A stretch of 64,000 nt of DNA from contig JBEVNR010000057.1 in NCBI GenBank assembly GCA_040507985.1, positions 14,128 to 78,127 on the forward strand. The letters run 5' to 3'. The DNA is from Rickettsiales bacterium. GTDB taxonomy: Bacteria > Pseudomonadota > Alphaproteobacteria > Rickettsiales > UBA6187. Of the stretch, positions 7,195 to 47,147 are shown one piece after another. Positions within the stretch are counted from its first letter, which is position 1; every line of letters starts with the position of its first letter. The position numbers and the translations under genes were made by a program. Below the pieces are notes generated by a model. The model saw only the letters and a program-made list of their open reading frames with translations, was not told the origin of the DNA and made no database searches.

Positions 7195-7423
7195 GACGTA
7201 ATCTCGTGGTGTTGTGTTCGGCCTTTTTCAGCGCGGCCTTTCGCGCAAGAAACCAGCATTACTTATTAAACGACCCGAGGAGTTTGGTCAAGCCAAGTTT
7301 TAGCTTGCTTGCGCACGATCAAAAACTATTTGCCGATACCCGGAACAGTGGCTATAATGACTTTCAACTTCCTTCCTCTATTGATCGCCCGTCGCCGTCA
7401 TCCCACTTAACCACCTTTCTCGC

Positions 7424-8317
7424 TTGCCAAGCGCGTTGCCTTACGTCATGCCGACGTCTATCGCCTCCGTAGAAAAGGAGAAAATATGCCACAGATGCAT
7501 TCACTCTCTTTCCCTCATAATGACTATTGTGGCCACTCTGGTTGCCGCATTTGGAATTGAATCCTACTACGTAATACAACACCAAAACAAAAGCGGAGGG
7601 ATGCCCCTTGACAAGTCTATTCCCTTGTTTTGGCTCATTCTTATTGTTGGCTCCGCTATTTATGATGTAATTTACGCATTCAACTCCTATTATTCTCTTG
7701 TATATCACGCAAAACCATATACAAAAAAATCTACCGACCACCCCGAAAACTCTCGCCTCGAAGAATCCGGTAAACCGGAAGAAAAAAATACCGCACAGAC
7801 GCAAAACAAAGTGACTTACCAAGACCTTGCCGATTTTGCTATGACGCAATATTATTGGAAGAATTTTCCACAGCCTTTCACTTATCGTTTACGCTTTGTT
7901 TTATATGCCGTCCTTTGCCTTTTCGCCATGTGTTGTAATTCGTTCCGTTTTATGGCATGGCGAAACGCAATGATCTTGGACGGAAAAGCAATACCGCTTC
8001 ATCCAGATTGGTTTTTAGGATTCGGATGGACCATGACGTACATAACCATGTGTCGGGTTATTGGCGCTATACGCAGCTTTCCGAAATTTGCAACGGACAT
8101 AAAGAACATTTCTGATGATGTTAGCGTACCGATTGATGAAAAACATCACAAAATGCTTAAGGAATCTTTTAAAAACCTAAGGCTATATGGAATCTTTTTA
8201 TGTTTGGCGTTGCCTGGATTCATTATATCAAGCCTCCCGCTAGCAGCGGAACTTATTGAAGCAATCGTTTGCTGGACCACCATATGCTTCGCTATCGCCG
8301 TCATCAAGATATTCTAA
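7424..8317 (+). CDS. Hypothetical multi-pass membrane protein (AT-rich ORFan)
   Basis: 297-aa ORF with several hydrophobic segments. Hand-counted lines give about 37-45% G+C. The true start may be internal (e.g. MTIVATL at 7519). It converges on the 3' end of the giant gene. Confidence 0.45.
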   Translation: MPSALPYVMPTSIASVEKEKICHRCIHSLSLIMTIVATLVAAFGIESYYVIQHQNKSGGMPLDKSIPLFWLILIVGSAIYDVIYAFNSYYSLVYHAKPYTKKSTDHPENSRLEESGKPEEKNTAQTQNKVTYQDLADFAMTQYYWKNFPQPFTYRLRFVLYAVLCLFAMCCNSFRFMAWRNAMILDGKAIPLHPDWFLGFGWTMTYITMCRVIGAIRSFPKFATDIKNISDDVSVPIDEKHHKMLKESFKNLRLYGIFLCLALPGFIISSLPLAAELIEAIVCWTTICFAIAVIKIF

Positions 8318-8491: not shown

Positions 8492-11400
8492 TTACAACCC
8501 GTATTTTCCTCGTAAATACCCCATAATGGCCGCCTCGCTCTGGCCTTTAACGTGATTCTCGAAAATAATTGCTTCCGCGACGTCGTGGCTTGCCGTCGAG
8601 GCGTTGCCGCCGATATGCATGCCGAACGTCGTGTTCAGCGGCGGGAAAGAGGATAATCCCTTTGTCACCGATTGATTGACCGTCGACGACGCCGAACGTC
8701 GCACGAGCGTCGTCATGCCCATAAAGCGAGACGACGCGCTCACATAGGCATGGGTGACGACGGGCAACCCGACGGAGTCGGAAAGATTCATCCGTACCGC
8801 CGATTCGCCCGTTATGTCAAGCGACGCGTGGCCGTAACGGTAGCCTACGCCTCCCGGAAGCGAAGGATTGGCGTAGCTTTCGGCGTAATTCTGTTCGTCA
8901 AGATAGAGCGACCAATAGCTTCCGCCGTAAGGAAGCGACAGGCCGATATTGCGCGCCGGGTCGCCGAAGGCGATCAGGTTGTTCGGCGCACGCGTATTCT
9001 CCGTCGTCACCACGAACACGCTCAGCTCGCTTGCACTTGCGCCGAAGGGATCGGGAACGTCTAAACTCCGCGCCTTGCCGCTTTCGTAGGCGAAACGCAG
9101 CGCCGGCAACCCGCCGATCCCCGACCCTGCATAGGCGGGCCGCAAGGTCGGATCCGCTTGCGTCGCGTCGTTGCCCTTGCCGGATTTGTCGCGCCATATG
9201 GCGGGGCGAACGGACTGGTCGTAGCGCAGCGAGCCTTGGCAATAGGGATCGGAGGCGTCGAGCCATAATTTTACCTCCGGCAAACCGCTTATGCCGCCGG
9301 GAGACGAGGAGGACAGGCATTCGCTCGTTTCGGGGTTGCGCACGATCGTAATTCCCCATTTCACGCCAAGATAATCCTCCATCGCCGTCATTTGCGCCAG
9401 CGTCACGTTTTGGTCGCCGTAGGCCAATATTTCGCCGACGGCGCCGCTCCAGGTCGCGTACCCTGCAAGCGCTCCGGCGGCGCCCACCGCGTTCGATCCG
9501 TTCGCCTGCCCGCTGCGCGCGGGCGGGGAGTCGGCCATCCGTGTTATGCCGTTGGTGCGTATGCGGCGCATATTCCCGTCGTAATACGCCGAAACGACAA
9601 AGGGTTGGCTCGTCGAAAACCCGAGGGCGCCGGCGGAGTAGGAACCTTTCCAGCTATTTTCGATCAGCGTCGCGCTGCGCATCGCGATGAAATTGCCGGC
9701 CATGTCGACGTCGGTGCGCCCTAAATTGAGCAGCCCCTGCGCCCGCGCCGTCTCCGCCGTCGCCACGGCGAACAAGGCGTAGCGTCCGGCGCCGTTAAAG
9801 GCCGCGACGTTCGGCAATCCCATGTAATCGTTCGCTCCGTCGAACACCATCGCGGACTTGCCGGAGAGATACGACTTGACGTATAGCGGACGGTAATTCG
9901 CCGTCGATTGCACCGCGTCGTTGCCGTTCCGCGACTTATCGCGCCATATGCCGGCCGCTTCGGCGTCGGAATAATTGGCGAGCGTTCCCAAACATAGCGG
10001 GTCGTCTGCGTCCAGCCACACCGCCGGCGTTTGGGTCACGCCCGAAACGGAGGGCGACGCAGCCGACATACATGGCGCCGTCGTCATGTCGTAGGCGGCA
10101 ATCGCGTATTTCGTGCGCAAATAGCTTTCGAGCGACGCAATTTGCGTGCCGGTTAGGCTCGTGCCGGCATAGGCCAGGACTTCGCCGATTTTTCCGTCCC
10201 AATTGGAATATCCGTCCACGCCGCCAACGGAGAAACGTCCGCCCGCCTGGCCGTTGCGCGTTCCGACGCTTTCTTCCGCCAATTTTGCGCCGTTCACCCG
10301 CACCGATCGATTGAATCCGTCATAGGTCGCGCTAATAATAAAGGGAGAGGTGGGCGCAACGCTCACCGGCGCGTTGGTGCCGTCGGACCACCAGCTATTG
10401 CGCCATTCGTAGCCGGACGTTCCGCTCGCCAGCGCCAGCACGTTCGATTTGCCGGATTGCTGCGCGTGGTGGAAGGCGAGCAAGCCTTGCGCCCTCGTCA
10501 CGTCGGCTTGCGCCGCCATGAACACGGCGTACACGTTCGCCCCTTCGAGCGCCGTCATCTCCGGAAGATCGAGCGCGTCGTCCGTGCCGTCGAAATTCAT
10601 CGCGCCCTTACCGTTCGTCCAGCTTGCGACGTAGAGAGGGCGAGGAGAGGCGGAATCCCATTGCGCGGCGTCGTTGCCCTGGCCGGACTTGTCGCGCCAT
10701 ATGGTCACGGCGGCCCCATCGGCGTAGGCGGGAGAGGCCCCGCACAGCGTGTCCGATCCGTCCAGCCATAGTTTAAGCCCGGTCGTCACCCCCGTACCGC
10801 CCGGATTAGAGGAAGACGTGCATGCGCCTTGCGCGGGGGGCACGACGAACGCTCCCCATTTTTGGCCTAAATAATTTTCCACGGACTTAGATTGCGTCGC
10901 GTTCAGCGCCCCTTTATAAAGTAAGACTTCTCCGACGTCGTTTTGCCCCCAGTAATTGTTCCGCACGTGGGAAATATAATACACGTCGGGCGCGATCGTG
11001 GAGTTATTGGCGAACGGATCCTGCGCGATAAGGTTTTTATTGCGATAGACTTGCGCCTTTCCTGCGGCGAGTTGCAGGCGCCACACCGCCATGCCGGCGG
11101 CGAGCGCGCCCGACATGTTCACGTCGCCGTTATCCATGGCGACGGAGAACGTGCCGTCGGTCTGGCCGACAAGGAAGGACAGCCCGGCCGGTTCTTGCGC
11201 GACATAGCTATAGCTCGACGCTTTTTTGTCGAACGCGAATATCGCGTCGCTATCGGAGGCGCTATCGTAATTGCGCGAGGCAAGGAAGATCGTAGCCTCC
11301 CTTCCCGTCAGCGAGAACGCCATGTTGCCGCTCATCGCGTCGTCGACGCCATCGAACCGTATGACGGGCAATCCGTTCTCCATGTTCTTTTTGTAGGTGG

Positions 11401-14400
11401 GAGAACCGTTTTTCAGCGTCGCGTTATAGACGTTGCCGGACTTGTCGCGCCACAGATCGACCGCCGCCCCGTCGGCATATTGCACCGACGCGCCTTGGCA
11501 ATAGGGGTCGTTCGCGTCCAGCCAGACGGTTAGCCCGGCGACGACTCCGGTCGCGCCCGGATCGGCAGTCGACGCGCAGGCGGCGGTTCTATTGTCTTTG
11601 GCGAACCATTTCGCCTGTAAATAGGATTCAAGCACATTCACGTTCGCCGCGCTTAGGGCGCCTTCATATAATAATATTTCGGCAAAATCGTTGCGTCCGA
11701 AATTGGCGCCGCGCACGTGGGATACGTAATATTTATCGGGCGTGACGGTAGATGTGTTCGCGAAATTGTCTTGTCCCGCCAACGCTCCGTTGCGATAAAG
11801 CGACGCCACGCCGGATTTGAGCGCCAGACGCCATACCGCAAGCCCCGTGGGAATGTCGGCCAACGCGTTTATATCGCCTTGGTCCATCAAAAGCTGCGCC
11901 TTGCCGTCCGTGGAGTAAACGGCGAAATTCAGTCCGGCCGGTTGGAGCGCCAGCGTTGCCGTCGAAGGCGCGGAACGGTCGGTGGCGAATATGCCGTCCC
12001 AGTCGGTGACGGAGTCTTTATTGTCCGCCGCAATGAATATGGTTGCTTCGCGATTCGTAAACGTTAAGGCGCCGAAGCCGCTCATCGCGTCGTCCACCCC
12101 GTCGAAACGCACGACGGGCAATCCATTTTGCGCGTTCGTGACGTAACTTGGCGTGCCGCCGTCCAATACGGCGTCATATCCCCTACCGGATTTGTCGCGC
12201 CACGTATTGACGGTAGATCCGTTTGCGTATTGGGCGCTTGATCCTTGGCAATACGGATCGTTCGCGTCCAGCCATAATTTCAGGCCGGAGGTGACGCCGC
12301 TTCCGCCCGGCCCGGCATTCGACGCGCAGGCGACATACGCCGCCGTGCCCCATTTATTGCCCAGATATTGTTCGACGGAACGCATTTCGCCGTCGGACAA
12401 GGCGCGATTATAAAGAATAATTTCGCCGAAATCGGCTTTTGCCATCGATCCGTCGCGCTCATAGCCTATGGTGACGACATTCGACGTCACGGCGCTTGCA
12501 TTAACGTAGGCGTCTTCCGCGACTTTCACTCCGCTGCGGAACATTTTCAATGCCCCCGCTTGCGCGCGCATCGACCATACGGAGAAATTGACGTCGGCCG
12601 CCACCAGCCCCACCATATCGTAATTATCGCGTTCGGTGAACAATTGCCCGTCGACGTCGCTGACGCCGAACACAAACGCGTTAGGATCCTGATACACGTT
12701 GCTATAGGCCGAGTTGGTATTGTCTAACGTAAAGAGCGCCCTCCAGTCGCTTTGTAAGTCTTTCGGAGCCATCGCAAAAAACAGCGTCATTTCCCGTTGC
12801 GGCAAACTTATCGGCGCTTGTACGGCCATGGCGGAACCGGCGTCCGCGCCGTTAAAATACATCACGGGCAATCCGTTCTGCGTATTTTTCTTATAGACGG
12901 GAGCGTCGTACGTCGTGACGGCGTCGCGCACGTATCCGGATTTGTCGCGCCATACGCTAACCCTTTCTGCGTCTGCATATTGGTTGGCCGCGCCTTGCGC
13001 TTTAGGATCGTTCGCGTCCAGCCATAATTGCAGCCCGCTCGTCACGCCCAAATTGCCGGGATTGCCTCCCCCTGCCCCGCCGCCGGAGGTAATGCCCCAT
13101 TTCGTCATTAAATAGTTTTCAAGCGCCGTTATTTGCGTATCGTTCGGCACGCTGCCGCCATAGACGAGCAATTCCGCCTCTATGCCGTCCCAATAATTGC
13201 TTCCTGCCGCATTGCCGCCGATACGGTTCGAACCGTTTTGCGTGAAACTTGGCGCGCCGGGAGCGTCCTGGCCTTTAAGCGCGCCGTTTATTTTCAGTTT
13301 ACGCGCGGAACCGTCCCATAAGGCGGACACAAGAAAGAGCTGACCTTGCGTCACGCCCGCCGCCACCGTTTGGTTGCTTGGCGCGCCGCTCCAATCTTGC
13401 TTCCATATATTGCCGGACGTCAATAATTGCGCGTTGTTTTGCATGATGGAAATTAAATGCTGCGAGGCTTTGGAAACATCGTCCGTCGCGGCGACCCCGA
13501 ACACGGCATACGGCGCGTTGCCGACAAGCGAAGAGAAATTTCTCAATATTACATCATCGCTGCTGCCGTCGAAATTCATCCCGGCACGGGCGCCGGGCAA
13601 ATTCGTGACGTCATAGGTCGGCCAGGCGGCGGGATTATCCTGAACGGCGTCGTTGCCGTTGCCGGATTTGTCGCGCCACAAGGCGACCGACGCTCCCGAC
13701 GCATAGCGCGACGCCGCTTTTTGACAATAAGGATCTTCCGCGTCGAGCCATAATTTCAGCCCCGCCGTCGCCCCCGCGCCTCCCGGGTCGGACGACGATG
13801 CACACGCCGCACCTTCTTTTGGTATGGTAATTTTCCATTTGTTCATTAAATATTTTTCGAGGGCGATGCGCTCGGCGTGCGTCTGCGTTGTGCCCACATA
13901 GGCTAACGCTTCGGCGATCGCGCCTTTCCACGGGTAGAGTATCGCGCTTGCGTTGCCCGGATCAGGCATCGCGCCGATCATGTTTCTTGTGCCCGGCGAG
14001 AAATTCGGAGCGGAAGGAGAAAGCCATTTCTTCGTTTCGCCATTCTTTTTCACCAGCAATTCGCTGCCGTTCCATACGGAGGAAACCAAAAACAATTGAT
14101 TTACGGAAGGGGTTACCCTAGTTAATTGCTGGCCTCCTCCCCATGATTGATTCCATGAATTGATTGGAGTAAGGCTTTGCGACATGTATTGCGCCGACGT
14201 CGTATCGCTTAAAGAAACGACCGTTCCGCTCGCCGCTCCAAGCGAAGACGCGCTCATTACCATAAAAGCGGCGTACGGGGCGTTACCCGTCATACTCGGC
14301 ATAGACGGCACGCTTAAATAATCGTCCGTACCGTCGAATTTTATCAATGCGGGCAGGGAGGCGTCCGACGTATCGTAAGTCGGTTTGTTCGCCGCCGTGT

Positions 14401-17400
14401 TTTGCGTCGCGTTACTCGCGTTGCCGGACTTGTCGCGCCAAAGATTGACCGCTCCGGCGTTCGCATAGGGGGTATATCCGCCTTGGCAATACACGTCGGC
14501 GGCGTCGTACCATAACTTTAATCCCGTGGTCACGCCCGTGGCGCCCGGATTGGGGGACGACGTGCACGGATAGGCGGAGGCGTCTATCGATATGCCCCAT
14601 TTATTGGCAAGGTAGGCGGTCACGGCGTTTATGTTCGCCTCCGTCAGCGTCGTGCCGCCATAGACCATAATTTCTCCGATATGGCCAATCCAGCTTTGGT
14701 CGGCGCCCGCCCGCTGGCCAATATAGCCAAATCCGTCGAAATATTGGTTTCTGGCGCCCGGCGTGTCTTGATTTCTTACTACCCCGTTAAATCGCGTGTC
14801 ACGCGTCGTGCCGTTCCAGGTGGCAAGATAAATAAAAGGCTGGTTTGCCGCAATCGACGCAGTGGAGGTGTTTTGCGTCGTTCCGAACCAATCGTGCGCC
14901 CATTGGTTAGAAGAATTTAAAAAATGGGAATTAGAAGAACGATTCGTCCATTTGCCAAAATCCAACAGCTTTTGCTGATAACCTGCTATGGCATTAACCT
15001 CCGTTAGCGCGAAAACATAGTAATTCGCGTTACCGCCTAAGGATTTGACGGCAGGAACGTTCATACGGTTGGCGTTTGTGGTGAAATACACGGAGGAAAG
15101 TCCATTGCGCCAGCCGGAGACATTCGTGGGTTTATAGCTTGCCGTGCTCTGCCTTGCGTCGCGCCCGTTGCCGGATTTGTCACGCCAAAGGGAAATGGCG
15201 GCGCCGTTCGCATATTGGCTTGCGGAGCCTCGGCACAAAGGATCGGAGGCGTCCAGCCATAACGATAAAAGGTTCGTTGCTCCGGTGATTTTGGGATCCG
15301 CCGATGAGGTGCATACCGCAGGAAAAGCCGATATCGCCCATTTATCCGCCAAGTACCTTCCGATTTTCACCACGTCGGGATCGCTCAGCACGACGTTGCC
15401 GTAAACAATGGCTTCGGATATTTTTCCGTCCCATTTTTCCCCCGACGTTTGCAGCGCGCGCCCGATGGAGTTAATGCCGCTTTGTTGGCCCGCATGGGCG
15501 GAAAAAGAGGCTTCCGCCCGCGTCACGCCGTCAAAACGCAAGACGCGAAGCGCATTCACGTTATCCCACAGCGCCCCGTAAATAAACGCCTTGTTCGCGG
15601 CAAGGGCGCTATCGGCTTGCGATACGTCGAGATCCCCCCCCCACCAGGAATTGCGCCAATCACCGGAGGCGCTGCTAATGGTGTTTTCGATATAGGCGTT
15701 GGTGATATTCGGCGTTCCTATCGAAATGATGGACTGCCTCCGCAACGCGTCCGTTTGCGCGACCATAAAAATCGCGTAGGAATTGTTTCCGAGCAGCTCC
15801 GGCAGATTGGGAAAACCGATATAATCGTCCGTGCCGTCAAAATCCATCGTCGGCAAGCCGTTGAGTCCGGTTTGTATATATTTAGGTTTATAGGCGTCGA
15901 CAAACTGCACGCCGTTTGATTCTTTTCCCGATTTATCCCGCCATAGGCCGACGGAGGCGTTGTTCGCGTATTGCGTCCCGCTTCCCATACAATAGGAATC
16001 GGCGGCGTCCAGCCACAGCGCCAAGCCGGCCGTCACGCCCGTATTGCCTGGATTGCTTCCCGAGGTGCAGGCAAGCGGCACGGATATGCCCCATTTTGCC
16101 GCAAGATAGCGTTCTACCTTAATGACGTCGGCGTCGCCAAGCGTCGCGTTGCCGTAACCTATGGCCTCAGCAATTTTGCCATCCCATCCACCATAATTTG
16201 ACCGTACCTTCCCGAATCCGTTCGCTTCTCCGTATTGAAGCGCGTGCGTCCCGGAATTCGTTTCCATCGCCAGCATTCCGTTAAAGCGAAATTTCCGCAC
16301 CGACGTCAAAGGGTTCCATACCGCCGAATATATAAACGGAGCGTTAGCGGCTATTTTGGATACCGACTGCGTAACGGATCTATCGTTGCTTCCCCACCAC
16401 GCATCTATCCATGTACCGCTTGAATCAACCATCGCGGTTCCTTCATAGGCATCGTTCGTGCCGCTTTTACCTATAACAAACAACATTTGTTGCTTTAATA
16501 CATCCGGCTGCGCGACAAAGAAAAGCGCATAGGCGTTGTTGCCGGAAAATTCCGACATATCCGCCATCGCGAGCACGTCGTCCGTACCGTCAAAATCTAT
16601 GGCCGACAGAGAGTTGACTGCTGTTTTACGGTACGCCGGCTTATAGGCCGCCGTCGTTTGCGTCGCGTTATTGGCCTTGCCGGACTTATCTTTCCATAGC
16701 GCTACCGCCGCGCCGTCGGCATAGGGCTGCCCCGTTCCGGTGCATAACGGATCGGCGGCGTCCAGCCAGAACGTCAATCCGCTCGTGACGTTCGTGCCGC
16801 CCGGATTGCCGGCGCCGGAGCAGGCCCCGTACGCGCCCAGTCCCCATTTCGCGGCGAGATAATTTTCTACGCTCGTCATGTTGGCGTCGCTGAGCGTCGC
16901 ATTGCCGTAGGCGATGATTTCCGCGATTTTTCCGTTCCAGTATGATCCGGGGGACGGGGTAAAGTGACCGATCTGGTTGCCCCCGTTTTGCTCGCCGGCA
17001 AAGGCGGGAGCGGTCGCCTCATATTCCGTCGCGCCGTTTAAGCGAAGCGTTTGCAGCGTGCGCGCGGCGTCCCACCGTGCGGCATATATAAACGGCGTCG
17101 AAACGCTAAATTTGGAGATATCGATCGTTGCCCCGCCCGCGCCCCAATTATATTTCCATGCGTTGTTCGCGGGAGACATCTCATGCGACGTAAAGGAGTT
17201 GACGCCAACGGCGGACTTGCCGACGCCTAACAGCGTTTGCTGCGCGATAACCTCCGGTTGCGCTACGACAAAAAAGGCGTAGGAACTATTCCCCGTAAAC
17301 GCCGCCATGTCCGGAAGCGTCAAATAATCGTCCGTTCCGTCAAAACGCATCGCGGGCTTTCCGGTCGCCAATCCCTGTCCGGCATAGACCGGTTTTTTCG

Positions 17401-20400
17401 ACGCCTGCGACTGCGCGGCGTCGTTGGCTTTGCCGGATTTATCGCGCCATAATCCGACGGCGGCGCTTTCGCTATATTGCGCGGCAACGCCGGAACATAG
17501 CGGATCGGACGCGTCCAGCCAAAACGTCGGCACGCTTGCCACGCCGGCCGGCGCCACGTACGGGGCACACGCGCCAAGAGAGGACGACGTTCCCCATTTG
17601 GTCGCCAAATAGGTTTCCAGCGTTTGGGCGTCGGAGGACGTGATCGCGCCGTCATAGACGATAAGCTCGCCAATATCCTGATCGCTTGATCCATACCCGA
17701 CATAAGCGCCGCCTTTCGTCGACAGATTGCCGGAGGTTTTCGTCGTTTCCGCCGCTTTCGTGCCGTTCACCACGATTTTGGCTTTTAAGTTAGAGCTTGA
17801 ATAATAGGCGCGCACAATGGAGATGCCGCCGACGGACGTCGTGCCGGCAGGCATGGAAAGCGTCGGCGCACCCGAAGTGACCCATTTCCACATCGGATTC
17901 GTCGAGCCGGCCGCCTGTAAGTACAACCCTGCCTCCGCAGCGCTCGGCGCGCCGTCGAAGCTAATGAATTTATTGTCGGCGGCAACGTTCTCGCGCAACG
18001 CGGCAAATATGTACATGTCGGCAAGTCCGCCGCCGAACGTGTCGGCGCGCTTCATGGCGTCGCTCGTGAAGCGTATCGCCGGCAGCGCGTTCATATAATT
18101 CGTGCGGTATTCCGGCATAACGGCGACGTCGGTTTGCGACAGCGCGGCGTTATGGCCGGACTTGTCGCGCCACAGGAAGATTTTTTCGCCGTCCGTATAT
18201 TTCGTTCCCGTTCCCTGACATAGCGGATCTTCCGCGTCGTACCATAGCGCAGGCGCGCGGGAAAGCGTCGCGCCGCCCGGCAAGGTGGAGGACGAGCACG
18301 CGGCGTTGATCGGCGAGGCCACGCCCCATTTTTGCGCCAGATATTTTTCCGCCGCCCACGCCTGCGTCGGGCTTAGCGCGCTATCGTAGAGCAATATTTC
18401 CCCGACGTCGGCGCGTCCGAAATTTTGGCCTCCGCGCACGTGGCCCACATAATACGCGTTCGGCGAAATAAGGTCGGCAAGATACGACGCGTCGCGCGAC
18501 GTCACCACCCCGTTTTTTGCGACGAACGCTTGCGCGCCGTCGATTTCCGCCCGCCATACGCCAAAGGAGACGTCGGCGGCGGAAGAAACGTTAATGTCTT
18601 GATTGTTGCTCAGCAATCCTACATTTTGATCGGAGGTCCCTCCTCTTCCGAAATAGATTAACGACGGATCGGAAAACGGCGATGCGGTAGACGCGCGGTC
18701 GTCCAGCGTAAAGACGGCGTCGCTATGGCCGGCGGCGTCTCCGGCGGCAAGCGCGACGACAATCGTCATTTTTTTGTCGGGGAAACGCCAGGACGCATAG
18801 CCCGTGAGGCCGTCGTCCACACCGTCGAACCGCATGACGGGCAGCGCGTTTTGGATGTTTTTCTTAAATATCGGCGCGCCGTAGACGATATCAGCATGGT
18901 AGTTGTTTTTTGATTTGTCCGCCCAGCGATAGGGAACGGCGCCGTCTTCGTAAAGGGCGTTGTTTTGGCATAGCGGATCGGCGGCGTCGAGCCACAATGC
19001 CGGCGTGGCGTCTACCCCGACGATCATGGGGTTGGAAGACGAGGCGCACGTCCGCGCCGGACCGGGAATATCGTATTTATCGCGCAGATAGGTGACGACC
19101 GTCGCTTCTTCCTCCGCCGTCGTCGCGGCGTTATAGGCGACGAACTCTTTTACGTTCCACGTGCCGCCGCCATAACCGAGCATCACGTTCGATAAATTGC
19201 TTACGCCGGCGCCGGCGCCCGTCCATTTCATGCGCCCTCCCCTATCGCCGCCGGCTTTAATGGCCCCTTCTTGGTAGGAAGCGAAGCCCATTTCGTGTTT
19301 GGAAGAAGAGATATAACCGCCATAGACGCCAAGCGCGCCGAGCGTCTCCAGCGCCGCGCTCGACTGCAACGACGTATCGCCGGTATGGGCGAGCGTCCAC
19401 GCCCCGGCGTTGGCCGTTTTCGCCGTTAACGAGAAAATCGACGCGTTGTCGGCGCTAAGGAAGGTCGCGAAGCCTTTTTTCTCGGCGGCGACGGCGCCGT
19501 CGTAGGCTATTGGAGCGATCGCCATATAAAACGACAACTCGCCGCCTGCGCCGAACGCGCCGCCGTGATGCCATAGGGCGGCCTGCTCGAACGTCGCCCC
19601 CGGTTCCACATTCGAGACGTAGGGAATCTTATTGCTTGAAAAAACGTTATTTTTAATGCTTCCGGGCTGCGGATAAACGTCGTATCCTTTTCCGGATTTA
19701 TCGCGCCATATTAAAAACGGATTAATAATTGTGCCGGCGCCGCCTCCGGGCAGAGCAAACTTATCTCCCGTGCAATAGACGTCTTTGCCGTCCAACCACA
19801 ACGCCATGTCGGCGGCGCGCGATTCCATTCCCGGAATGGAATCCGGCACGCAATCCGCCAATATTTTTATAGCCTCGACAATATTCCATTTTTTGGCGAG
19901 CGCAAGATTCAGCGCCCGCGCGTCGGCGTCGTTATACGCGCGGTTATAGGCAATAACCTCATGAACGGCGCCCCTCCAATATACGCCTCCGGCGCTACCC
20001 AGCATAAACGCGTCGCTTGCACTTGACGCCCTGCTTTGCGCCGGCGCGTCCGCCGCGCGCCATAACCCGTTTTTATAGATTTTTCTCGTCGTTCCGTCCC
20101 ATGACGCTTCATATAAGAACGTTTCTTGTTGCAGCGCCATGGGAAAGGCGTGGACCATAAAGGTTTGTTGCGGAACTAAAAGATCGTTGCCTTTCCAGCT
20201 ATTTGCCCAATTATGCGTTGCGCCGTCAAATAGGTGCGCGTTCGCGTGATTGTTCGTTGAGGAATCCGGTAAGGCCAGCATCCCGCGCGCGGCGCTCACA
20301 TCGTCTAAACGTGCGACGGCAAAGATGGAATAAGGCGCGTTGCCAGCAAGTTCCGTGACGGCCGGCACGCTTAAGCGATCGTCCGTGCCGTCGAAAACGA

Positions 20401-23400
20401 CGCCGCGCCGATTGAATCCGTCCGATACGGCGTAAATCGGCGCGAATCCGTCCGTTTTTTGTCTGGCGTGATAGTTTTTGCCGGATTTATCGCGCCACAG
20501 GGACACGCGTTGCCCATCTCCATAACTCGAGGCTCCGTTGCAATAGACGTCATTCGCGTCCAGCCATAAAGCGGGCGCGTTCGCTCCGGTCACGCTCGCC
20601 GCCGGCCCGGCCCCGGGCGAACACGCGACGTCTTGCGGACGCGCTATTCCCCATTTCGTCGCAAGATAGGATTCGACGGTTTCGATATCGTCGGCAGAGA
20701 CGGGTTTTGCCGTCAGTATCGCCTCTCCAACATAGAGAACGGAGCCGGCGCCGTTCGTCGCGCCGCTCGCGCCGCCGATTCTAAACGCGGCGTTCGCAAA
20801 GTCGTAGCTTGAGAAATTCGCAGCGCCGAGGCGTTCCGTCACGCCGTCGACGCGTAGCCCCGCACGATTATTGGGCGCATGTAAGAAAGCCGTCGCAATA
20901 TGATAGCCGGCGTTCGTTCCTGCGGTCGTTTTGGCGACGGAGACGCTAAGCGGAAGCGCGCCGGCGGCAACGTTGAGCGCGCCCATGTCGGTTGCGCCGT
21001 TTGCCGCGCCCAGCATATAAAACGATCCGTTGCCGTTAAGCGCGCCGCTTATGTACCGCGCCGTCGCATCGGGCTTGCGGAAGACGACGAACGCCGCCCC
21101 GGAATCCGTTCCGCCCAAGTCGGAAACAAGCGTCGGCCCATCATAAAAATCGTTTGCCGCCATTTTTATCACCGACCGCACGCCATGGTCGCGCTTATCG
21201 TACGCGGGAGCGCCGCTTGCCGTTAACTTTCTGCGCGCGCTCGATTTATCGTACCAGTATTGCGCGGTTTGGCCTTGCGTATATTGCGAGGTGCGGCCGG
21301 CGCAGAACGGATCGTCGGCGTCCATCCACATATCCGGCGGCGTCGTCAGTCCATCCAGCGCAGCGTCGTGGGCGCACGACATGCCCACGCCCCAATTGCC
21401 GGAAATTTGCCCTTCGACGGCCTGTATCCCTTCGTCGCTCAAGGCGGCGTCGTAGAGGATAATCTCGGCGACGTCGCCTTTATAGTAATGCGGACCGTCG
21501 CTACCTATCGCCAAATCGCGCTCATAATAATTGAAGGAGGGAACGGACGTGGCGCCTCCGCTCGCGACGTCCGCGCCGTCGATGCGAAGCCGCATGTTTG
21601 CGCCGTCCCGTTGCGCCGTATAGAAATGCCAATTATCCGCAAAACCGCCGGCGGGGACGAATGCAAGGCGCCCGTTGCCGGAAGTCGCGTTTCCGACGTC
21701 GAAAAACAGGCTTCCGCCGCCGGAAAGCGCCGTTATCCCCATATACGCCGGCTCGCCTTCTTCGTCTCCCCACGTGAATATTTTTCCTTCATGGGCGGGA
21801 GAAGCATAATTCGCGAGGGCAAAAAACGTCATGTCGCCGTTTGCGCCAAAGATTTTTCTTCCCTCTACGTTTACGCCCAATTTATTGCTTGTGCCGTTAA
21901 ACCGCACGATCGGCCGACCGTTTAATATGTTCCTCTTAAACGTCGGACGGCGCGAAGAATCGCTCGCATACACGTCCCTTGCCCACCCCGAACGATCTTT
22001 CCACAAGGCGACGGCGGCGCCGTCCGCCAAAGGATGCCGCACCCCTTGGCACGCCAGGTCGTTTGCCGAAATTCGGAAAGTTAAATGCGTTTGAGGTATG
22101 GAATCGTCCGCCAGACAATCGTTGCCGTCCGAATCGCCCGTGGCGTCGCCTTCTTTTGGCGAGGCGTCGTTTTGTTTCTGGTCGATGCCCCATTTTTCCA
22201 GAAGATAGCGCTGAACGACGATTACATCGCCTTGGGACAAGGGTGATCCATAGATTATGACCTCTCCCGCCTCCCCGTCCATCCAGGAAGAATTCCCCCC
22301 TTTGGCTCCGATTCGATTGTCTATGCCGGTCGCCGCATGATTTTTAACGCCGTCGGGCGCCAACATGGCGGCGTCGGCGTTAAATAATATCGCTCTGCCC
22401 AGGGCGGGATCGTATACCACGCTCGCCGCATAGAGCATGAAGGGAGAGACGCTGTCCGTTCCCATGGAAATGGGTCCGCCGGAGAATCCGTACAGCGTCA
22501 AGTCTCCCCGCACCCCTGCGTGGGCGAGCTCAAGCGCGGTATACGATCCCAAAGAAGCGGCATTGCCGCCGGAGACAAGCGTTTGCGCGCTTGTGTTCGT
22601 CGCTTCGCGGAATACCGCGAAAATCGTAAAGGGACTATTGCCGACGGGAACGGTTTCGTCAGGAATATGCAACCAGTTTTGCTCCGACGCCACGAATTTG
22701 ACGGCGTTATGGCCGTTTCGGGTTTCGCGTCCGACGTCGGTCGCCTCCACATAGGGGCGGCGCGCGTCGGTGAGGTGATAGGCATGGCGGTAATGGCCGC
22801 TTTTATCGCGCCATACGGAGAGTTTTTGTCCGTTCGCCGCGACCGAGTCGGATTTGCAATCGCCGTCCAGATCGTCGCCGTCCAGCCACAAGGCAAGGCC
22901 GGTTCCTTTAGTAGCGGGAATCGAGTTCAGCGCGCAATCCCTGTATATGCCCCATTTTTCCTGCAAATAGCGTTGAATTGACGCCGTGTCGCTGCCGACG
23001 CCCGCGCCGAGGCGACGATTAAACAGAATAATTTCCGCCACGTCGCCCTTATAACACTCGCCGGAACAAGCGGTTGCCGTGCTAACCAGACGCGCCGCTC
23101 CGATCGAGTCCATACGGCTCGCCGCGTCTTGCGCCCTAGCGGCGGAAGAAGAGACGAGCGTGCGCTCCTCGCCGTCCACATACATGTTGGTCGTCGCCGC
23201 GCTTCCCCGCACCGTCAGCACGCGCATCGTCTGCGGGAAAAGATTCGCGCCCGTTTTAAGCCGTTGTTCCGTACCGTTCGTATTGTAGTGGCGCATGAGC
23301 GACGCGTCGACGCCGCTTAACAAATAGCCGTGCGTATTAAGTCCGCCTTTTTCCTGCCCATAGATGAATTGTTGCGTGGCGCCGTCTTGTAAATTCGTGC

Positions 23401-26400
23401 TAAACGCCGCGAACAGGGTATAGTTATCGTTATATTTCGGAAAAACGGACTTTCTTATGCCCAAATAATCGTTAATTCCGTCAAAAGAGACAATGTTGCG
23501 CATCGAGCCGTCATTGCCTTGCACGGTGTTTTTCACCACGTTCGGTTTCGCCGCGCCCCACGCGTCCGCGTTATTGCCGCTTTTATCTTGCCAAGCGTCC
23601 GCCGCGCCGGCGGGAGTGGCGTCGTCCGGCACGCAGTCGGCGTCGATATCGTCGGCGTCGAGCCATAACGTCAGGCCGGAGACGTTCGCCAGCGATTTTT
23701 CGGAGCATACGCTCACGATATTCCATTTTTTATTTAAGTATTCTTCCAGGTCGTAGATTTGTCCGTATTGCGCGGACGACAGCGCCGCGTTATAGACCAG
23801 CATCTCCGCGATGGAGCCGTTAAAATAGGCCGACGCCGCCGCGCCGTCGCGCCCGATCTGGTTGTTGCCGCCGGTCGCCGACGTCGACGTCGAGGCGCCG
23901 ATCTCTTGCTTGCGGTTGATACGGATCGTGCGCGCGCCCGAATCGTATCGCGCCACCAACATCTGCGCCATGTCGGGCATGACGCTGCCCCAGTCGGTCG
24001 ACGTAAAGGTTGCGCCGACGCCGATTTTGGCGGTGAAGTCGTCTCCCAATCCCACGCCGAAGCGCCCGCCGCCCGTGCCGCCCGACATAAGGAAGCGATC
24101 GCCCGTTCCCGGCAACGCCTTATACGTCAATATGGCGGCGACGGTGTACGGATCGTTGCCGAGCGGAATGGTTTTATCCTGCATGCGAAAATATTCCCCG
24201 CTCGCCGCGTTAAAGGTGACGGCGTTGCGGTTATTGACTTTTACGCCGTCGATGGACGGCGCCACGCCCCACGACGCGTGGTTGCCCTTGCCGGATTTAT
24301 CCACCCACACCACCACGTCTTGGTTCGGAATATTGCCGTCAGGGGTGCAATCGCCGTTCACGTCGTCGGCGTCGAGCCACATTTTTAAATTGGCGCCGGC
24401 GATTTTCACGGGCGGATTGGTCGACGCGTCGCACGACGACAGCAACGCCCATTTAGAGATAAGGTAGTTTTCCACCTCTTTTAAGTCGACGGTAGAAAGT
24501 GCGCTGCGGTAATAGAGCATTTCGGCGATATGGCCGTCAAAATTGAACGTCTCGAGCAGGTCGCCGTTTTCGTTGCGATGTACGCCCGCGCCGATCCAGA
24601 TATATTGGCTCGCGTTGCCGTTGCGCGACGTCGTGTCGAAGGCCGATCCTATTTCCTCGCCGTTCACCCGCACCATGCGCCCGTCGGCGTTTTTATCGTA
24701 ACGGAAGCTGAGCGCGTAGGGAATCGAGCGCGCGACTTTATAGGGCTTCATTAAAGGGTACGCATTGATCGCGCCGTCGACGCTCGTCTCCCACAGATTT
24801 TCGACCGCGCCGGTCAGGCTGCGATAGAGGCTAAAGACGTTCGGAGCCGTGGCGCCGGCGACGCCGTATTCCGACGAGGCCAGCAAATATTGCTCGGCGT
24901 AGCGTTCGGTTTGCATCACCGCCAGCATGGTGTAGGAATTATTGCCGTTTGGCATAAGCGGATGGTTGGCCGGCGCGACCGGGTTCAGCAACGACAAGTT
25001 TTCGTTGTTCGCGCGGTCGAAGGTGACGACGTTTTTCCCGGCAATCACTTTTCTGCCGACCGACGGCGGCGATTTTGCGCCGGGCGTAGGTGCGGAGGCG
25101 TTAATCGCCCATACGGTGCCGTCCGCGACGGCGTTATATCCGCTGCCGCTTTTGTCCTTCCAAGCGCTTACGTCCGTTTCGGCATAAAGCGCCGCGTCGG
25201 TTTTGCAATTCGCGTCCATGTCGCCGGCGTCGAGCCACAGCGCCAGATCGTTGCTTGGCGCGTAATTAGTCGGGATTTCGGGGCAAAGATAGCCGCCGAG
25301 ATCCCACTTGCCGGCCAGATAGCTTTCAATCGCGGAGACGTTTTTCGCCGTGAGCGTCGAACCGGCATACACCAAGACTTCCGCGATCATGCCGTTCCAA
25401 TAACGATTCGCCCCGTCGTTATAGACGCCGATGCGGTTATTGCCGTTTTGCAGCGTATTATGGGCGGGAGGCGCGTCGGAGGCGACCTGCCTTCCGTTCA
25501 TGCGCACCGTGCGCGCCGCGCCGTCCCACGCGCCGGCGAACATGAACGCGCCGACGCCCATATAAGAGGCCGCATTGGGGCTAAGCGCCGTTCCCTGCCA
25601 ATCGTGGTTCCATAGCTGATTCGTGCCGTTATACCAATGGCCGTTGCCTTTATTGGCCTGGCCGGAGGCGCCAAGCATGGCGAAGCCGTTTTTCGCGGCG
25701 GGCGCCCGCGCATAGCCTATTCCGAACACGTAATATTTCGCGTTGCCGGCGAGGGCCGCAATGTCCGGAAGCGCGAGATTGTCGTCCGTGCCGTCAAAAT
25801 TCATCGCCGGTTTGCCGAAGCGCCAATTCGTCGCATAGGTCGGCTGCAATGCCGCCGTCGATTGCCCGGCGTTATTGCCCTTGCCGCTGCGGTCGCGCCA
25901 TAAATACACCGCCGCGCCGTTTGCGTATTGCGCCGCCTTGCCCTGACAATAGGGGTCTTCCGCATCCAGCCATAATTGCAACCCGTCCGTGACGCCCGTC
26001 GCTCCCGGATCGGACGAGGACGCGCACGCGCTCGTCGCGTCGGAAGAAATTTTCCATTTTTTCGACAAATAATCGTGGACGGTCGCGATTTGCGTGCCGG
26101 TTAAGGCGGTATTATACAGCAATATCTCGCCGACTTCCGCTTTGAGGTAATTCGGATCGCCCGCCGCCGGATTGCCCGCGCCCACCCACAGCGCGTCGTT
26201 CGTGTCTTTAATGGCCGTTGACACGAAATTATGGGTTTTCGTCAATTTGCCGTTTTCATAGAACGACGCCGTGTTGCCGGTTCCCGCGTTGCCCATGTCG
26301 AGCGCGACGGACAGCATCACCGGCTTGTCGACGTTCGGCTTGGGGGAGACATAGCTATACGACGCCGCGCCCGCGTCTTTAAAGAACAACCGCTGGACGC

Positions 26401-29400
26401 CGCTGCCGCCGGTCGCGCCGGTCCCCAGCAGCGAATTAATGCGCCAATTATAGGCGTTGTCCGCGCCTTTCGACAAGAGATAAGCCGGGCGATCCAAATT
26501 CGAGACGCTCAGCACGATAAAGCCGGTCATGTCTTGCGATAGGCTTAAACCCACACTATCGGCGGCGGCCATGTAGTCGCCCCCGGCAAAAACGACGGAC
26601 GGCAGGCTTGCGCCGAAGCCGGACGTCGTTTTATAGACGGGCTTCGCCGCCGCCACGGTTTGGCCGGCGTGGTTGTTGTTGCCGGATTTGTCTTTCCACG
26701 ACGCCAACTCTACGCCGTCGGACAATTTTCCGCCATAGCAGGTCGGATCGGTTGCATCCAGCCATAATTGCAGGCCGCCCGTCACGCCGGAGCCGGAGGA
26801 AGGCACGCACGCCGCCGCCGTTGCGATTCCCCATTTTTGCGCCAAATACGCCTCTATCGCCGGCACGGTGGCAGCGTCCATCGACGTATCGGCATAAACG
26901 AGCATTTCCGCCATCATGCCGTCAAACGTATATCCGGACGTATGCAACATGCGCCCGATGGCGTCAACGTTCGTATTGCTCATATTGCGCGCGCCGGGCG
27001 CGTCCTGCGCCTTGACGGCGCCGTTAATGCGGGTCGTGCGGATCGCGCCGTCCCATGTTAGGGTGGCAAGGAACGGCACGCCGGCGCTGACGCCCGCCGC
27101 CGCCGCCGACACGTCTAAATCCGCTCCCCACCAGGCCTGGCGTAAATTGGCGTTAGAAAATTCAAGCGATAAGTATGATCTGTTGCTTGGCTCGCCCAAC
27201 GCAATGAAATTTTTTGTGGCTACCACGTCGGTTTTTACGACGAGAAAAATATTATAAGCGTTGTTGCCGTTCAGTGCGGAAATCACCGGAAGATTGACGT
27301 AATCGTCCGCCCCGTCAAATTCGACGGCAGGTAGCGCGTTCATGCCGGATTGGCGATAGACCGGCATAAGCAAGGCCGTAGACTGATAGGCGTGATGCGA
27401 GGAACGAGACTTATCGCGCCATAACGAGACGGCGCCGCCGTCGGCGTAGCGCGTCGCCTCTCCAAGGCAATACGGATCGTTTGCGTCCAGCCACAGGCGA
27501 AGCCCTGCCGTTTTTCCGGTATTTCCCGGATCGGCGGAAGAAGTGCAGACGCTTTGGGCGCTTATGCCCCATTTGACCGCCAGATAATTTTCGACCGTCG
27601 CGATATTGACGTCGGAGAGATTCGTATTTCCATAAACGACGATTTCCCCGATTTTTCCGTCCCACCGCTCGCCCGTCGTGTGCAGCGCGCGTCCGACGCT
27701 ATTTATGCCGCTTTGTTGTCCGTTATGGGGGGAGGGCGCGATTTCAGTAATTTTTTTCCCTTCGAAGCGTACCGATAGCTTGCCGCTCGCATTATTCCAC
27801 ACGGCGCCGTAGAGGAAAGGTGCAGTTGTCGCTATTGTATTCTCTTGCGTAGCGACGTCGATATAGGCCCCTGTTCCTCCCCACCCATGTCGCCACGCCC
27901 CTGCCGCATCGTTTAAGGTGTTTTCAATGAAAACGTTGTTAATGCTCGGTGTGCCGATGCTTAGCAACGCCTGCCGCCTTAACGCGTCCGGCTGGGCCAC
28001 CGCAAAAATGGCGTAGGAGTTATTCCCCAGAAGTTCCGGCATGTCGGGCAGGGACAAATACCCGTTCGTGCCGTCGAAATCGAGAACGGGAAGCGCGTGT
28101 ATGCCGGGCGTCGGCGCATAAACCGGCCACGAGCCGTTAAGCGGCTGCGTCGCGTCGTATCCTTTGGACGATTTATCCCGCCACAGACGCACCGCCTCGC
28201 CGGAGGCGTATTGCGCGCCTGTTCCTTGACAGAACGGATCGGCGGCGTCAAGCCAGAGCGCAAGTCCGCCGGAGACGCCGCCGGGACCGGAGGAGAACGA
28301 AGACGCGCAGGCGTTAAAGACGCGCAACGCTTTCGCTATGCCCCATTTCGTCGCCAGATAGCTTTCGACGCTTTTAACGTTGGCGGCGGTTAACGTCGTT
28401 CCCGCATAAACGCTTACCTCTTCGACGGCCCCGTCCCAATATCCGCTGCCGGAGAAGGTTTCGCCGATGGCGTTTAAGCCGTTTTGCAGCCCGTTATGCG
28501 CGACGGACGGCGTTCCGGAGCCGGTCGCGACGCCGTTAAAGCGCGTGGTGCGCGTCGTGCCGTTCCACGTGGCCGCATAAAGGAACGTTTCTCCGGCGGT
28601 AAAGACGACGGGGGTGTTTTGGTCGTTCCCGTACCAATTATGCCGCCAGTTCGTGGCGCTGCTCATGAAATGCACGTTCGATCCGTACAAATTCGTCGTC
28701 GACGTCAGGTTAAGCAGCGATTGCGACCGGATTGTATCGGCATTCGCCACCGCAAAAATGTAGTAATTCGCGTTGCCCAACAACTCCGGCATGTCCGGCA
28801 TGCGCAAGCGGTCGTCCGTTCCGTCGAAATCCACGGCAGGTTTTTCGTTTTGGCGATTCAGACGATAGATCGGGCGGTATCCGGAGGCAGAAATGGCGGC
28901 GTCGTTGCCCTTGCCGGATTTATCGCGCCATATCGCCACCGTCGTGTCGCCGCCATATTGGTTTTCTTTGCCTATGCACAGGGGATCTTCGGCGTCCAGC
29001 CACAATATGTTGCCGGTCTGATAGGGAAGCGGCTGCGTGATCGGGCCGCACGCCACCCCGACGCCCCATTTATGACCAAGATAGGCTTCGTTTACCGCCC
29101 GCTCCGTCGCCGTGACGGCATGGTCGAACAGCACTATTTCCCCGACGTCCACCCTGCCCCAATCGTTATCCCGCGCTGCCGCTATGGAATACGTATCCGG
29201 AGCGAACGCCGTTCCCGCATACGCGTCCTGCGTGATTTGTGCGCCGTTTTTGTAAAGCGTCGCCATGTTTGACGCGAGTCGCGCCGTCCATATCGTAAAA
29301 TCCGTCGGCGTCGCGGCGGTCGCGTCCAACCCGTAGCCCGCGCCGTGCAACCGCAGGGTATTATCCGCCACGGCGTTGCCCAACCCCAGAAAATTCGGTT

Positions 29401-46532: not shown

Positions 46533-47147
46533 ATGTTCTCTCCATACGGATTGTTCACGATGGACAGATTCCTAAATGCGGTTCGCCATATCCCGACAAT
46601 GCTTGCCGCCATAGCGAAGTTTTGTCTTCGGTGGTTAGCTTTCCCGGTTTTCGACCTCAGGCCATCCCGCATTCTTCTTCCCACGCATTCTCGAATAGGA
46701 TATGGGATCGTTGGTATGCTGACATGGATTGTTTATCTTTTGCGAGCAATCGCAAAAACGTTTGTAGATAAATATGTGCTCCTCATATGTATTTTGGTTT
46801 CCTTGGGCGTCGTCTGTGGTTTATTGCTATGGACCGAGATTTACCATCTTAGATGGAAAAGACCGTTCAGAGAAGCGATCAAAGTGCAATATATCTTTCG
46901 TACCGCATGGTTAATCAGTCTGGGCGTCGTATATATATTGTATGCATTAAGCGATCTCCGCAATGCTCCGCCTATCGCCGTTCCGATTGTCACAATCGTC
47001 CTGATAGTCTTATCTTTTGCATGTTACGTCGTTATAGCGCGGTCTTTATTGCCAAAATATTTCTGGAACAAACAAGAAAGAATTCGAGCTTATGCAATAC
47101 AGAATCAATCGGAAGCAGAACGTCAATGGCCTACAAATCGCAATTGA
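46533..47147 (+). CDS. Hypothetical multi-pass membrane protein (AT-rich ORFan)
   Basis: 204-aa ORF with about 4 hydrophobic helices. No family recognised. Confidence 0.45.
   Translation: MFSPYGLFTMDRFLNAVRHIPTMLAAIAKFCLRWLAFPVFDLRPSRILLPTHSRIGYGIVGMLTWIVYLLRAIAKTFVDKYVLLICILVSLGVVCGLLLWTEIYHLRWKRPFREAIKVQYIFRTAWLISLGVVYILYALSDLRNAPPIAVPIVTIVLIVLSFACYVVIARSLLPKYFWNKQERIRAYAIQNQSEAERQWPTNRN

Follow-up and report, generated by a model that had tools for sequence, protein, structure and literature searches.

Module relationships in a 47-module LamG array encoded by a giant gene of a Rickettsiales bacterium

Protein repeat arrays usually grow by duplications that cover several domains at once and often take place mid-array, as in the super-repeats of nebulin and titin (Bjorklund, Ekman & Elofsson 2006, PMC1553488). 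The modular pilins PilB and PilC of Streptococcus sanguinis carry a ConA-like module that binds sialylated glycans and glycosaminoglycans (PMC8179133, PMC9934059), and PilC, of ~53 kDa, consists of a pilin module, an immunoglobulin-like module and the ConA-like lectin module (PMC9934059). Laminin_G_3 is reported as the commonest domain of archaeal huge proteins, and adhesion has been proposed as the role of many giant proteins (PMC11573180; bioRxiv 10.1101/2023.11.21.568195). Here we analyse a giant gene in a stretch of 64,000 nucleotides, hereafter the window, from a Rickettsiales bacterium (GenBank assembly GCA_040507985.1, contig JBEVNR010000057.1, positions 14,128 to 78,127 of the forward strand). 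The gene is a single uninterrupted open reading frame (ORF) of 37.3 kb on the minus strand (window 8492-45814; 12,440 amino acids plus the stop codon), and the 1.3-MDa product consists of a pilin-like head, a Cys-rich spacer and 47 LamG/ConA-like modules, M0 to M46. A first-pass annotation made from the sequence alone had noticed that distant modules can be each other's closest relatives, and had read the array as old and patchwork, built by non-adjacent duplications or shuffling. That observation is correct, and the reading is partly supported: it is right on age, stability and assembly and incomplete on mechanism, which appears to combine tandem duplication, block duplication and mosaicism. 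The explanation that we consider probable is that the array grew by intragenic duplications, all of them ancient.

Module relationships and growth of the array

The 47 modules of ~250 amino acids were delimited by the anchor LWLDA..DP.C...W.DKSG. Each module starts with LWLDAxDPxC...WxDKSG and ends with YLxxKWG and a Cys-containing linker, and a hidden Markov model built from this segmentation recovers exactly 47 near-full modules in the giant protein. Modules 1-46 of the first-pass annotation are M1-M46 here, with M0 as an additional first module, and the edges lie ~40 nt from the earlier coordinates because a module is begun here 8 residues before the Trp; its module 37 (15327-16080) is thus M37 (window 15284-16039), and its module 21 is M21 (27518-28279). 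Most of the 1,081 pairs in an all-against-all identity matrix are 25-35% identical. The top of all pairs is M21-M37, with 55% protein identity at a distance of 16 modules and 12 kb; the adjacent pairs M42-M43 and M36-M37 reach 54% (59% in DNA) and 47%, respectively, so that the earlier estimate by eye that M42 and M43 are roughly half identical in protein was accurate. The long similar stretches reported for M21 and M37 are present as quoted: PELLGNNSYAIF.VAQ.DALRRQ...SIGTP.I.N..IENT (41 residues) is 78% identical in amino acids and 70% in DNA, GQQSGINS.GRAL.T.GE.WDGKI.E..VYGN..LSD (37 residues) is 76% and 68% identical, and VCTSSADP is common to both modules. A neighbour-joining (NJ) tree (Kimura distances, 242 columns, 200 bootstraps) recovers (M21,M37) at 96, M36 joining M21/M37 at 80 and M35 joining that group at 71, together with (M42,M43) at 93, (M19,M33,M41,M42,M43) at 90, (M44,M45) at 77 and (M39,M40) at 71. 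The likeness proposed between M38 and M20 stands in that ATWNGTTR.TRFNGV occurs in both and M20 is the best partner of M38 (42%), yet M20 is as near M36 (43%), M21 (42%) and M24 (42%), and (M20,M38) has a bootstrap of only 55.

Two subfamilies can be resolved, and only in the C-terminal half of the array (M19-M45). Subfamily A has 13 modules (M20-22, 24, 31, 35-40, 44 and 45) with a mean internal identity of 38%, and subfamily B, which had already been picked out by eye and forms the clade with bootstrap 90, has five (M19, M33 and M41-43) with 40%; the mean identity between A and B is 31%. From M0 to M46, with dots for unclassified modules, the order is ...................BAAA.A......A.B.AAAAAABBBAA. 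in one-letter form. In a joint analysis with the modules of five fetched relatives (P0165-P0168 and P0172), A and B modules share 38-57% identity with the nearest paralogue versus at most 31% with any foreign module, while for M0-M18 and the other unclassified modules the best foreign module (24-31%) and the best paralogue (25-36%) are of similar rank. The closer kinship of A and B modules to paralogues than to foreign modules indicates that the two subfamilies expanded within this lineage and that the remaining modules are an older core.

The best partner is non-adjacent for 37 of the 47 modules, and the statement that neighbours are always the closest relatives is therefore false. Patchwork growth by non-adjacent duplication or shuffling nevertheless describes only part of the array, since there is also a clear local tandem signal. 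The best partner is adjacent for ten modules versus 2.0 expected under permutation, five times chance (P=0.0002), and the adjacent best pairs are M14-15, M35-36-37, M39-40, M42-43 and M44-45. Identity declines with module distance (Spearman -0.19, P<0.0005), with a mean of 31.6% for adjacent and 29.2% for non-adjacent modules. The adjacent best pairs are best read from their sequences as classical single-module tandem duplications, now old. Selection against similar neighbours, as in misfolding avoidance (PMC4660218), was considered and rejected: adjacent modules are slightly more alike, with no sign of avoidance.

M21-M37 is the closest pair of the array, but M37 does not look like a lone module that has moved, since the pair is one cell of a collinear diagonal at lag 16 that aligns M20-M24 with M36-M40 (43, 55, 38, 31 and 43% identity). 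This diagonal is the best run at any lag of 2 or more, with a module-order permutation P of 0.006 over three modules and 0.0025 over five, and once the M21-M37 cell is removed, the other cells still rank within the top 1.7% of alternative assignments. A single segmental duplication of ~5 modules (~3.7 kb), with a later change at M23 or M39, would explain this most simply, and M21 and M37 would then be closest to each other at 12 kb because of this block duplication. The two copies may once have been adjacent and then been parted by M25-M35, or a larger unit may have been duplicated and then remodelled. The inverted-order pairing that the matches of the first-pass annotation imply (M20 with M38, M21 with M37) was rejected as the main signal, the collinear lag-16 block being better supported.

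Four points weigh against this account of the array. M23 and M39 are mismatched within the block (31%); the NJ tree does not join M22 with M38, or M24 with M40, as sisters; the topology, with synonymous divergence saturated, rests on amino-acid distances, which mix time with constraint; and three large collections yielded no orthologous array from a sister genome, so that the order and timing of the duplications come from paralogues alone. A rival, function-driven explanation is that modules for the same ligand were kept similar or converged wherever they are placed, with little signal of history. The loops of M21 and M37 are as conserved as their strands, most other subfamily-A pairs that include M37 have less conserved loops, dN/dS is ~0.1 and the structural neighbours of the modules are ligand-binding lectin modules, all of which would suit such an explanation. 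It is nevertheless unlikely, since 250 residues would hardly have converged to 55% identity, since the collinear block and the excess of adjacent partners are signatures of history, and since differential constraint may exaggerate relationships but cannot create them.

Part of the patchwork lies within modules. M20 is a mosaic with M36/M24-like flanks and an M38-like centre, in which 18 consecutive informative sites favour M38 (max-chi2 P<=0.003), and three other triplets give mosaic P values of 0.01-0.04. Identity between M21 and M37 peaks in two segments (70-77% and 57-65%) and is at background elsewhere. These segmental patterns leave no trace in the DNA, and could be due to ancient exchange between modules or to segment-specific constraint. 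They are also what speaks for ancient gene conversion or ectopic recombination, by which patches would have been copied between distant modules and the silent sites would have diverged later. As a replacement for duplication history this is possible although somewhat doubtful: no DNA-level tract is left in the M21/M37 stretches, where the use of the same codon is at background and identical runs are 10-14 nt at the longest, the triplet of M21 with M37 and M36 is not significantly mosaic (P=0.39), and conversion does not predict a collinear diagonal of five modules. It does not exclude growth by duplication, and could have acted in addition.

Growth by intragenic duplication probably proceeded from an old core, M0-M18 and scattered others, whose modules are now near the limit of recognisable similarity. 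Subfamilies A and B then expanded by single-module tandem duplications (M35-36-37, M39-40, M41-43 and M44-45) and by at least one segmental duplication that spanned several modules (M20-M24 versus M36-M40), with some modules, such as M20, becoming mosaic through old exchange between modules or through constraint that varies by segment. After duplication, synonymous sites drifted to saturation under purifying selection on the fold and, in M21/M37, on the loops, and the outcome is DNA without recombination-competent repeats and an array that is stable in length.

Some modules outside the two subfamilies, and the base composition of the gene, show further peculiarities. M25-M28 (window 22097-25261, minus strand) have a variant opening, LWLDADD(I/V/L)D(A/G)(N/D)C, in which the Cys is shifted; these four consecutive modules cluster in the tree, as if they formed a separate old block between the two lag-16 copies. 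M29 (window 21353-22200, minus strand, including the upstream linker) is without the LWLDA opening and has LTFRISANDLAC, and the linker before it is an acidic, Asp/Gly-rich QKQNDASPKEGDATGDSDGNDC, unlike other linkers and possibly a hinge or a metal-binding site. Third-position GC content varies from 0.61 to 0.81 across the modules, with the minimum in M31, M36, M38 and M39 and the maximum in the N-terminal half; window 13000-17000 and 19800-20600 are regions of low third-position GC, and the 2-kb bin of lowest GC in the gene is 14001-16000 (0.536).

Age of the duplications and soundness of the assembly

All duplications are ancient. The Nei-Gojobori proportion of synonymous differences (pS) is 0.62-0.74 in all tested pairs, whether closely or distantly related, against a ceiling of 0.75, and the synonymous distance (dS) exceeds 1.3 in the tested pairs and is effectively saturated, while the non-synonymous distance (dN) ranges among them from 0.37 (M21-M37) to 1.12. 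The same codon is used at 41-48% of identical residues in the M21/M37 shared stretches versus 44-52% in unrelated pairs, the longest identical nucleotide run within those stretches is 10-14 nt, and dN/dS is ~0.1 for M21/M37. Since pS is saturated and codon use is at background, the peptides common to M21 and M37 are held by purifying selection and are not recent copies. Recent gene conversion and recent tandem amplification are both ruled out, as the first-pass annotation had concluded for the latter.

The earlier remark that neighbours are without near-identical DNA copies also holds. When the eight most similar module pairs are aligned by codon, DNA identity stays at or below 60%. Exact direct repeats in the ORF reach 25 nt at most, in M41/M42, where the repeat encodes LWLDANDP; the corresponding maximum in codon-shuffled controls is 14-18 nt. 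No longer identical repeat had been missed by eye. The longest repeats all fall on three conserved motifs, LWLDA.DP, WRDKSG and YL..KWG. Tandem Repeats Finder found trivial micro-repeats only, a result that is uninformative on the modules because the maximum period of 500 is below the module length. These values bear directly on a recently amplified repeat region of variable length, of the Periscope or contingency-locus type. Such a region has parallels in some related LamG arrays with identical neighbouring modules (P0207, 100%), but here protein identity is at most 55%, DNA identity of the eight closest pairs at most 60%, the longest repeat 25 nt and dS saturated; the explanation is already refuted for the assembled sequence and is the least credible of those considered.

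RecA-dependent exchange needs ~20-30 bp of identity. With DNA identity of at most 60% and no exact repeat beyond 25 nt, resistance to recombinational collapse and to misassembly, both proposed in the first-pass annotation, is therefore a reasonable conclusion, and old arrays of this kind are stable because their DNA has diverged past the reach of homologous recombination. An assembly artefact, in the form of chimeric strain joins or mis-ordered repeats, has to be considered since the source is a contig of a metagenome-assembled genome (MAG), and an independent Logan assembly (run SRR28982155) matches the dnaA side of the locus at 100% and stops before the giant gene. It is very improbable, since the reading frame is open across 12,440 codons with invariant residues kept in all 47 modules, and since the repeats are all too short to mislead a de Bruijn graph at usual k; repeat-driven misassembly in particular is ruled out. 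The gene, 37 kb long, can thus be trusted as assembled. The coordinates of its parts are collected in Table 1.

Table 1. Positions of the giant gene and of its modules in the window.
Feature	Window position	Strand	Basis
Giant ORF (pilin-like head, Cys-rich region, 47 LamG modules)	8492..45814	-	ORF read and module hidden Markov model
Putative pilin-like head domain, aa 1-225	45140..45814	-	prepilin-type motif; homology to stand-alone pilin-like proteins
Cys-rich Sushi/CCP-like spacer, aa 230-688	43751..45127	-	Pfam Sushi match; kept in relatives
LamG/ConA-like array M0-M46, aa 689-12440, modules of 217-286 aa each	8495..43750	-	motif anchors, profiles, structure model
M37, aa 9926-10177, subfamily A	15284..16039	-	identity matrix, tree, structure model
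M21, aa 5846-6099, closest relative of M37	27518..28279	-	55% protein identity, 60% DNA identity, dS saturated
Block M20-M24, collinear with M36-M40 at lag 16	25262..29026	-	permutation test of identities
Block M36-M40, collinear with M20-M24	13049..16792	-	permutation test of identities
M38, ATWNGTTR.TRFNGV in common with central M20 segment	14537..15283	-	identity matrix, mosaic test
M19, subfamily B (NALPVMRFDG...)	29027..29749	-	identity matrix, tree
M33, subfamily B	18269..19018	-	identity matrix, tree
M41-M43, subfamily B; M42-M43 54% identical, bootstrap 93	10793..13048	-	identity matrix, tree

Module fold, head and putative function

At E<0.01 on pieces of 500 residues, Pfam gives no module match, and single modules were scanned at a relaxed E-value instead. 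Laminin_G_3 (PF13385) then matches 18 of 30 modules at E<=1, with a best E of 7.6e-12, and M37 scores 24.6 bits, slightly below the gathering score of 27.6 bits. A PDB profile search with 30 modules matches chain 4qvs, annotated as an S-layer-domain protein (E=2.8e-6), as well as sialidase B and an extracellular arabinanase; the PilC minor pilin chain 7oa7 is a weak match (E=0.11). An AlphaFold2 (AF2) model of M37, with a predicted local distance difference test (pLDDT) of 92.7 and a predicted template modelling score (pTM) of 0.90, is a beta-sandwich with a C-terminal helix. Foldseek finds 337 PDB matches to this model at E<=1e-3, all lectin-like jelly rolls (TMq up to 0.66), including the NTNH/BoNT/TeNT jelly rolls, trans-sialidase, CBM40 and a phage tailspike (TMq 0.46-0.66). 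Acidic residues D11, D14, D35 and E209 are invariant in the modules. The loops of M21-M37 are as conserved as the strands (0.55 versus 0.58), compatible with a shared binding surface; when M37 is paired with other members of subfamily A, conservation of the loops mostly falls below that of the strands (e.g. 0.32 versus 0.45 and 0.28 versus 0.40). By analogy with these structural relatives, the modules are probably binding units, likely for glycans, and the subfamilies probably differ in specificity. Sorting the modules into an old core and two subfamilies allows a rational choice for binding studies, namely M21 or M37 (A) and M42 or M43 (B).

The head starts with MRRTG|FSLIE and a hydrophobic helix, which on a reading of the sequence is the prepilin-type class III signal peptide motif. 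Written out further, as MRRTG|FSLIEMAAVLGAVAALSVMVAGG or MRRTG|FSLIEMAAVLGAVAALSV, this start has the short leader ending in Gly, F at +1, E at +5 and a hydrophobic stretch of ~20 residues, and the motif is kept as GFSLVE and GFSLTE in the relatives P0166 and P0168. A scan of metagenome contigs with the head alignment found 218 relatives, of which 79 loci were kept, matching approximately head residues 1-222. Among these 79, 73 ORFs are complete, with a stop codon in the contig (median 264 residues, longest 786), 64 have a short leader followed by G|F[TS]L[IVL]E, and none has LamG modules. Of five stand-alone heads tested, four exceed the TIGR02532 cut-off and match GspG/GspH over the first helix. 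Stand-alone heads are often clustered, with 2-6 paralogues together. The head of the giant aligns with these stand-alone proteins over its whole length, and the giant is therefore a complete pilin-like module with a huge C-terminal graft after approximately residue 225. As a family (L009-L087), the stand-alone proteins are widespread, apparently unnamed, pilin-like and ~260 residues long, with conserved Y(N/G)ALPGD and NG(N/D)G motifs. A 256-residue N_methyl gene (L006:3465-4235) lies ~700 nt from dnaA on the contig with the nearest DnaA relative (53%).

Several observations tell against the head as a working pilin, an assignment for which the evidence is indirect. It scores below the curated cut-offs, with 12.6 versus 16.3 bits for TIGR02532 and 12 versus 21.2 bits for PF07963; an AF2 model of the head from four sequences has a pLDDT of 43 and is unusable; and the 64-kb window holds no prepilin peptidase and no type-4-filament machinery. 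A PDB profile search with the head gave chance-level EcoRV matches only and no sequence match. The predicted order of a helix followed by strands is compatible with a pilin fold and no evidence for it.

The Cys-rich spacer that follows the head has ~6-8 repeats of CPxGYxGxVxxxC...W...C, a pattern recognised by eye. Pfam Sushi (PF00084) gives one weak match to it (22 bits versus a cut-off of 20.7, E=2e-4), and no single stretch passes alone. The region is kept in the relatives P0166, P0167 and P0168 and in L009, a protein of 786 residues that is an intermediate form with the head and the Cys-rich region only. To our knowledge, Sushi-like repeats are uncommon in bacteria.

The protein is probably a giant extracellular adhesin. 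It would act as a long multivalent fibre displayed by way of its pilin-like N-terminus, which would sit at the tip of a type-4 filament or serve as a membrane anchor. A bolder and more tentative proposal, which we regard as rather doubtful, is that it is a genuine pilin of megadalton size, which a prepilin peptidase would cleave at G|F, with the head at the tip of a type-4 filament or in a pilin-anchored fibre, 47 lectin beads extending perhaps ~200 nm to reach host or prey surfaces, and subfamilies with distinct glycan specificities that make it a multivalent and multi-specific adhesin of an uncultured alphaproteobacterium that is Rickettsiales-like and deep-branching. Its size would then exceed that of every modular pilin described to date more than tenfold. 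If the head works as a pilin, the concept of the modular pilin would be stretched by an order of magnitude. Such a head would also suggest that Rickettsiales-like bacteria have a family of pilin-headed LamG fibres that has so far gone unannotated and may mediate attachment to eukaryotic hosts.

Genomic setting, relatives and comparison with known systems

The next-best match of the adjoining DnaA, after those at 100%, is only 53% identical, and the lineage is therefore deep-branching. The dnaA gene (window 49735-51183, minus strand) lies ~4 kb from the start of the giant gene, and the cumulative GC-skew minimum at ~50-52 kb places the replication origin probably there; in that case the giant gene would run in the direction of replication, with its start no more than ~5 kb from oriC. 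Among its flanking genes are an MscS-like gene and ORFs without a Pfam match at window 46533-47147 (+), 7364-8317, 56338-57534 and 57712-58785, the first of which encodes 204 residues and is divergent from the start of the giant gene.

Searches for close relatives returned distant ones. An M37+M38 query against an index of 5.8 billion proteins gave a best identity of 32%, to short proteins only; M37 against species-representative genomes, a set that lacks the source genome, gave partial matches of 26-38% in unrelated phyla only; and an exhaustive HMMER search turned up LamG arrays by the thousand, with identities of 39% at most. A word-indexed search with the head and the Cys-rich region returned nothing, but it also missed the known relatives and is taken as a false negative. 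Three proteins that share the architecture were used as the nearest substitute for a comparison of orthologues: P0166 (3,863 residues, GCA_964352935.1), P0168 (3,173 residues) and P0167/P0316 (~3,400 residues, MCE3231884.1, from a 'Rickettsiaceae bacterium' MAG), with 10-13 modules each and, at source, the name hypothetical protein or none. Like the giant, they carry this head (34-47% identity), the Cys-rich region and LamG modules bearing LW.DA, W.DKS and YL..KW, and they are likewise single genes in housekeeping contexts; they differ in having 10-13 modules instead of 47 and in lacking modules of subfamilies A and B (at most 31% identity). Between P0166 and P0168, collinear orthologous modules (34-42%) are more alike than paralogues (18-35%), and such arrays can therefore persist module by module. 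A Dioxygenase_C gene follows the giant gene in both architecture-sharing relatives (L007:12673-14031 and L008:20362-21222); downstream of the giant gene in the window, the one ORF tested (7364-7849) has no Pfam match.

Among 20 related LamG arrays, P0169, P0172, P0176 and P0241 are without adjacent best partners and have lags of 2-6. Non-adjacent best partners prevail in many of the related arrays, and others are dominated by neighbour pairs. In P0207 (3,193 residues), modules 0-3 are four consecutive modules of 100% identity, and recent tandem amplification thus occurs in such proteins. Non-adjacent nearest relatives are ordinary in related LamG arrays and in repeat proteins generally, and the pattern is not special to this gene. 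The array in the window stands out only by its length of 47 modules and its uniformly high divergence. More than the evolutionary pattern, it is the whole protein that is notable.

The pattern confirms in a bacterial gene the known rule that long arrays grow by single- and multi-domain duplications. As in the expansions described by Bjorklund and colleagues, off-diagonal stripes appear in the identity matrix and the closest relative is not the neighbour, at lag 16 here and at lags 2-6 in the relatives. The giant gene differs in having one detectable block, an unusually long lag and no regular super-repeat period, and in being a bacterial gene without introns in which all events are old enough for silent-site saturation. 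Periscope proteins (PMC8201768) are likewise long bacterial surface proteins whose tandem domains project a binding function, but their repeats are near-identical in DNA and change in number, whereas the modules described here have at most 60% DNA identity and no recombination-competent tracts. With the modular type IV pilins the protein shares an N-terminal motif of the class III signal type and a pilin-like module, followed by grafted ConA-like lectin modules. It differs from them in its 47 modules and 12,440 residues, compared with 860 residues for the largest in the survey, in its Cys-rich Sushi-like spacer, in that its pilin fold and processing are putative, and in that no filament machinery genes lie nearby in the window. 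The giant proteins surveyed in bacteria and archaea (PMC11573180; bioRxiv 10.1101/2023.11.21.568195) belong to the same size class of more than 5,000 residues, and those surveys describe neither a pilin-headed array of 47 LamG modules nor a case from Rickettsiales-like Alphaproteobacteria.

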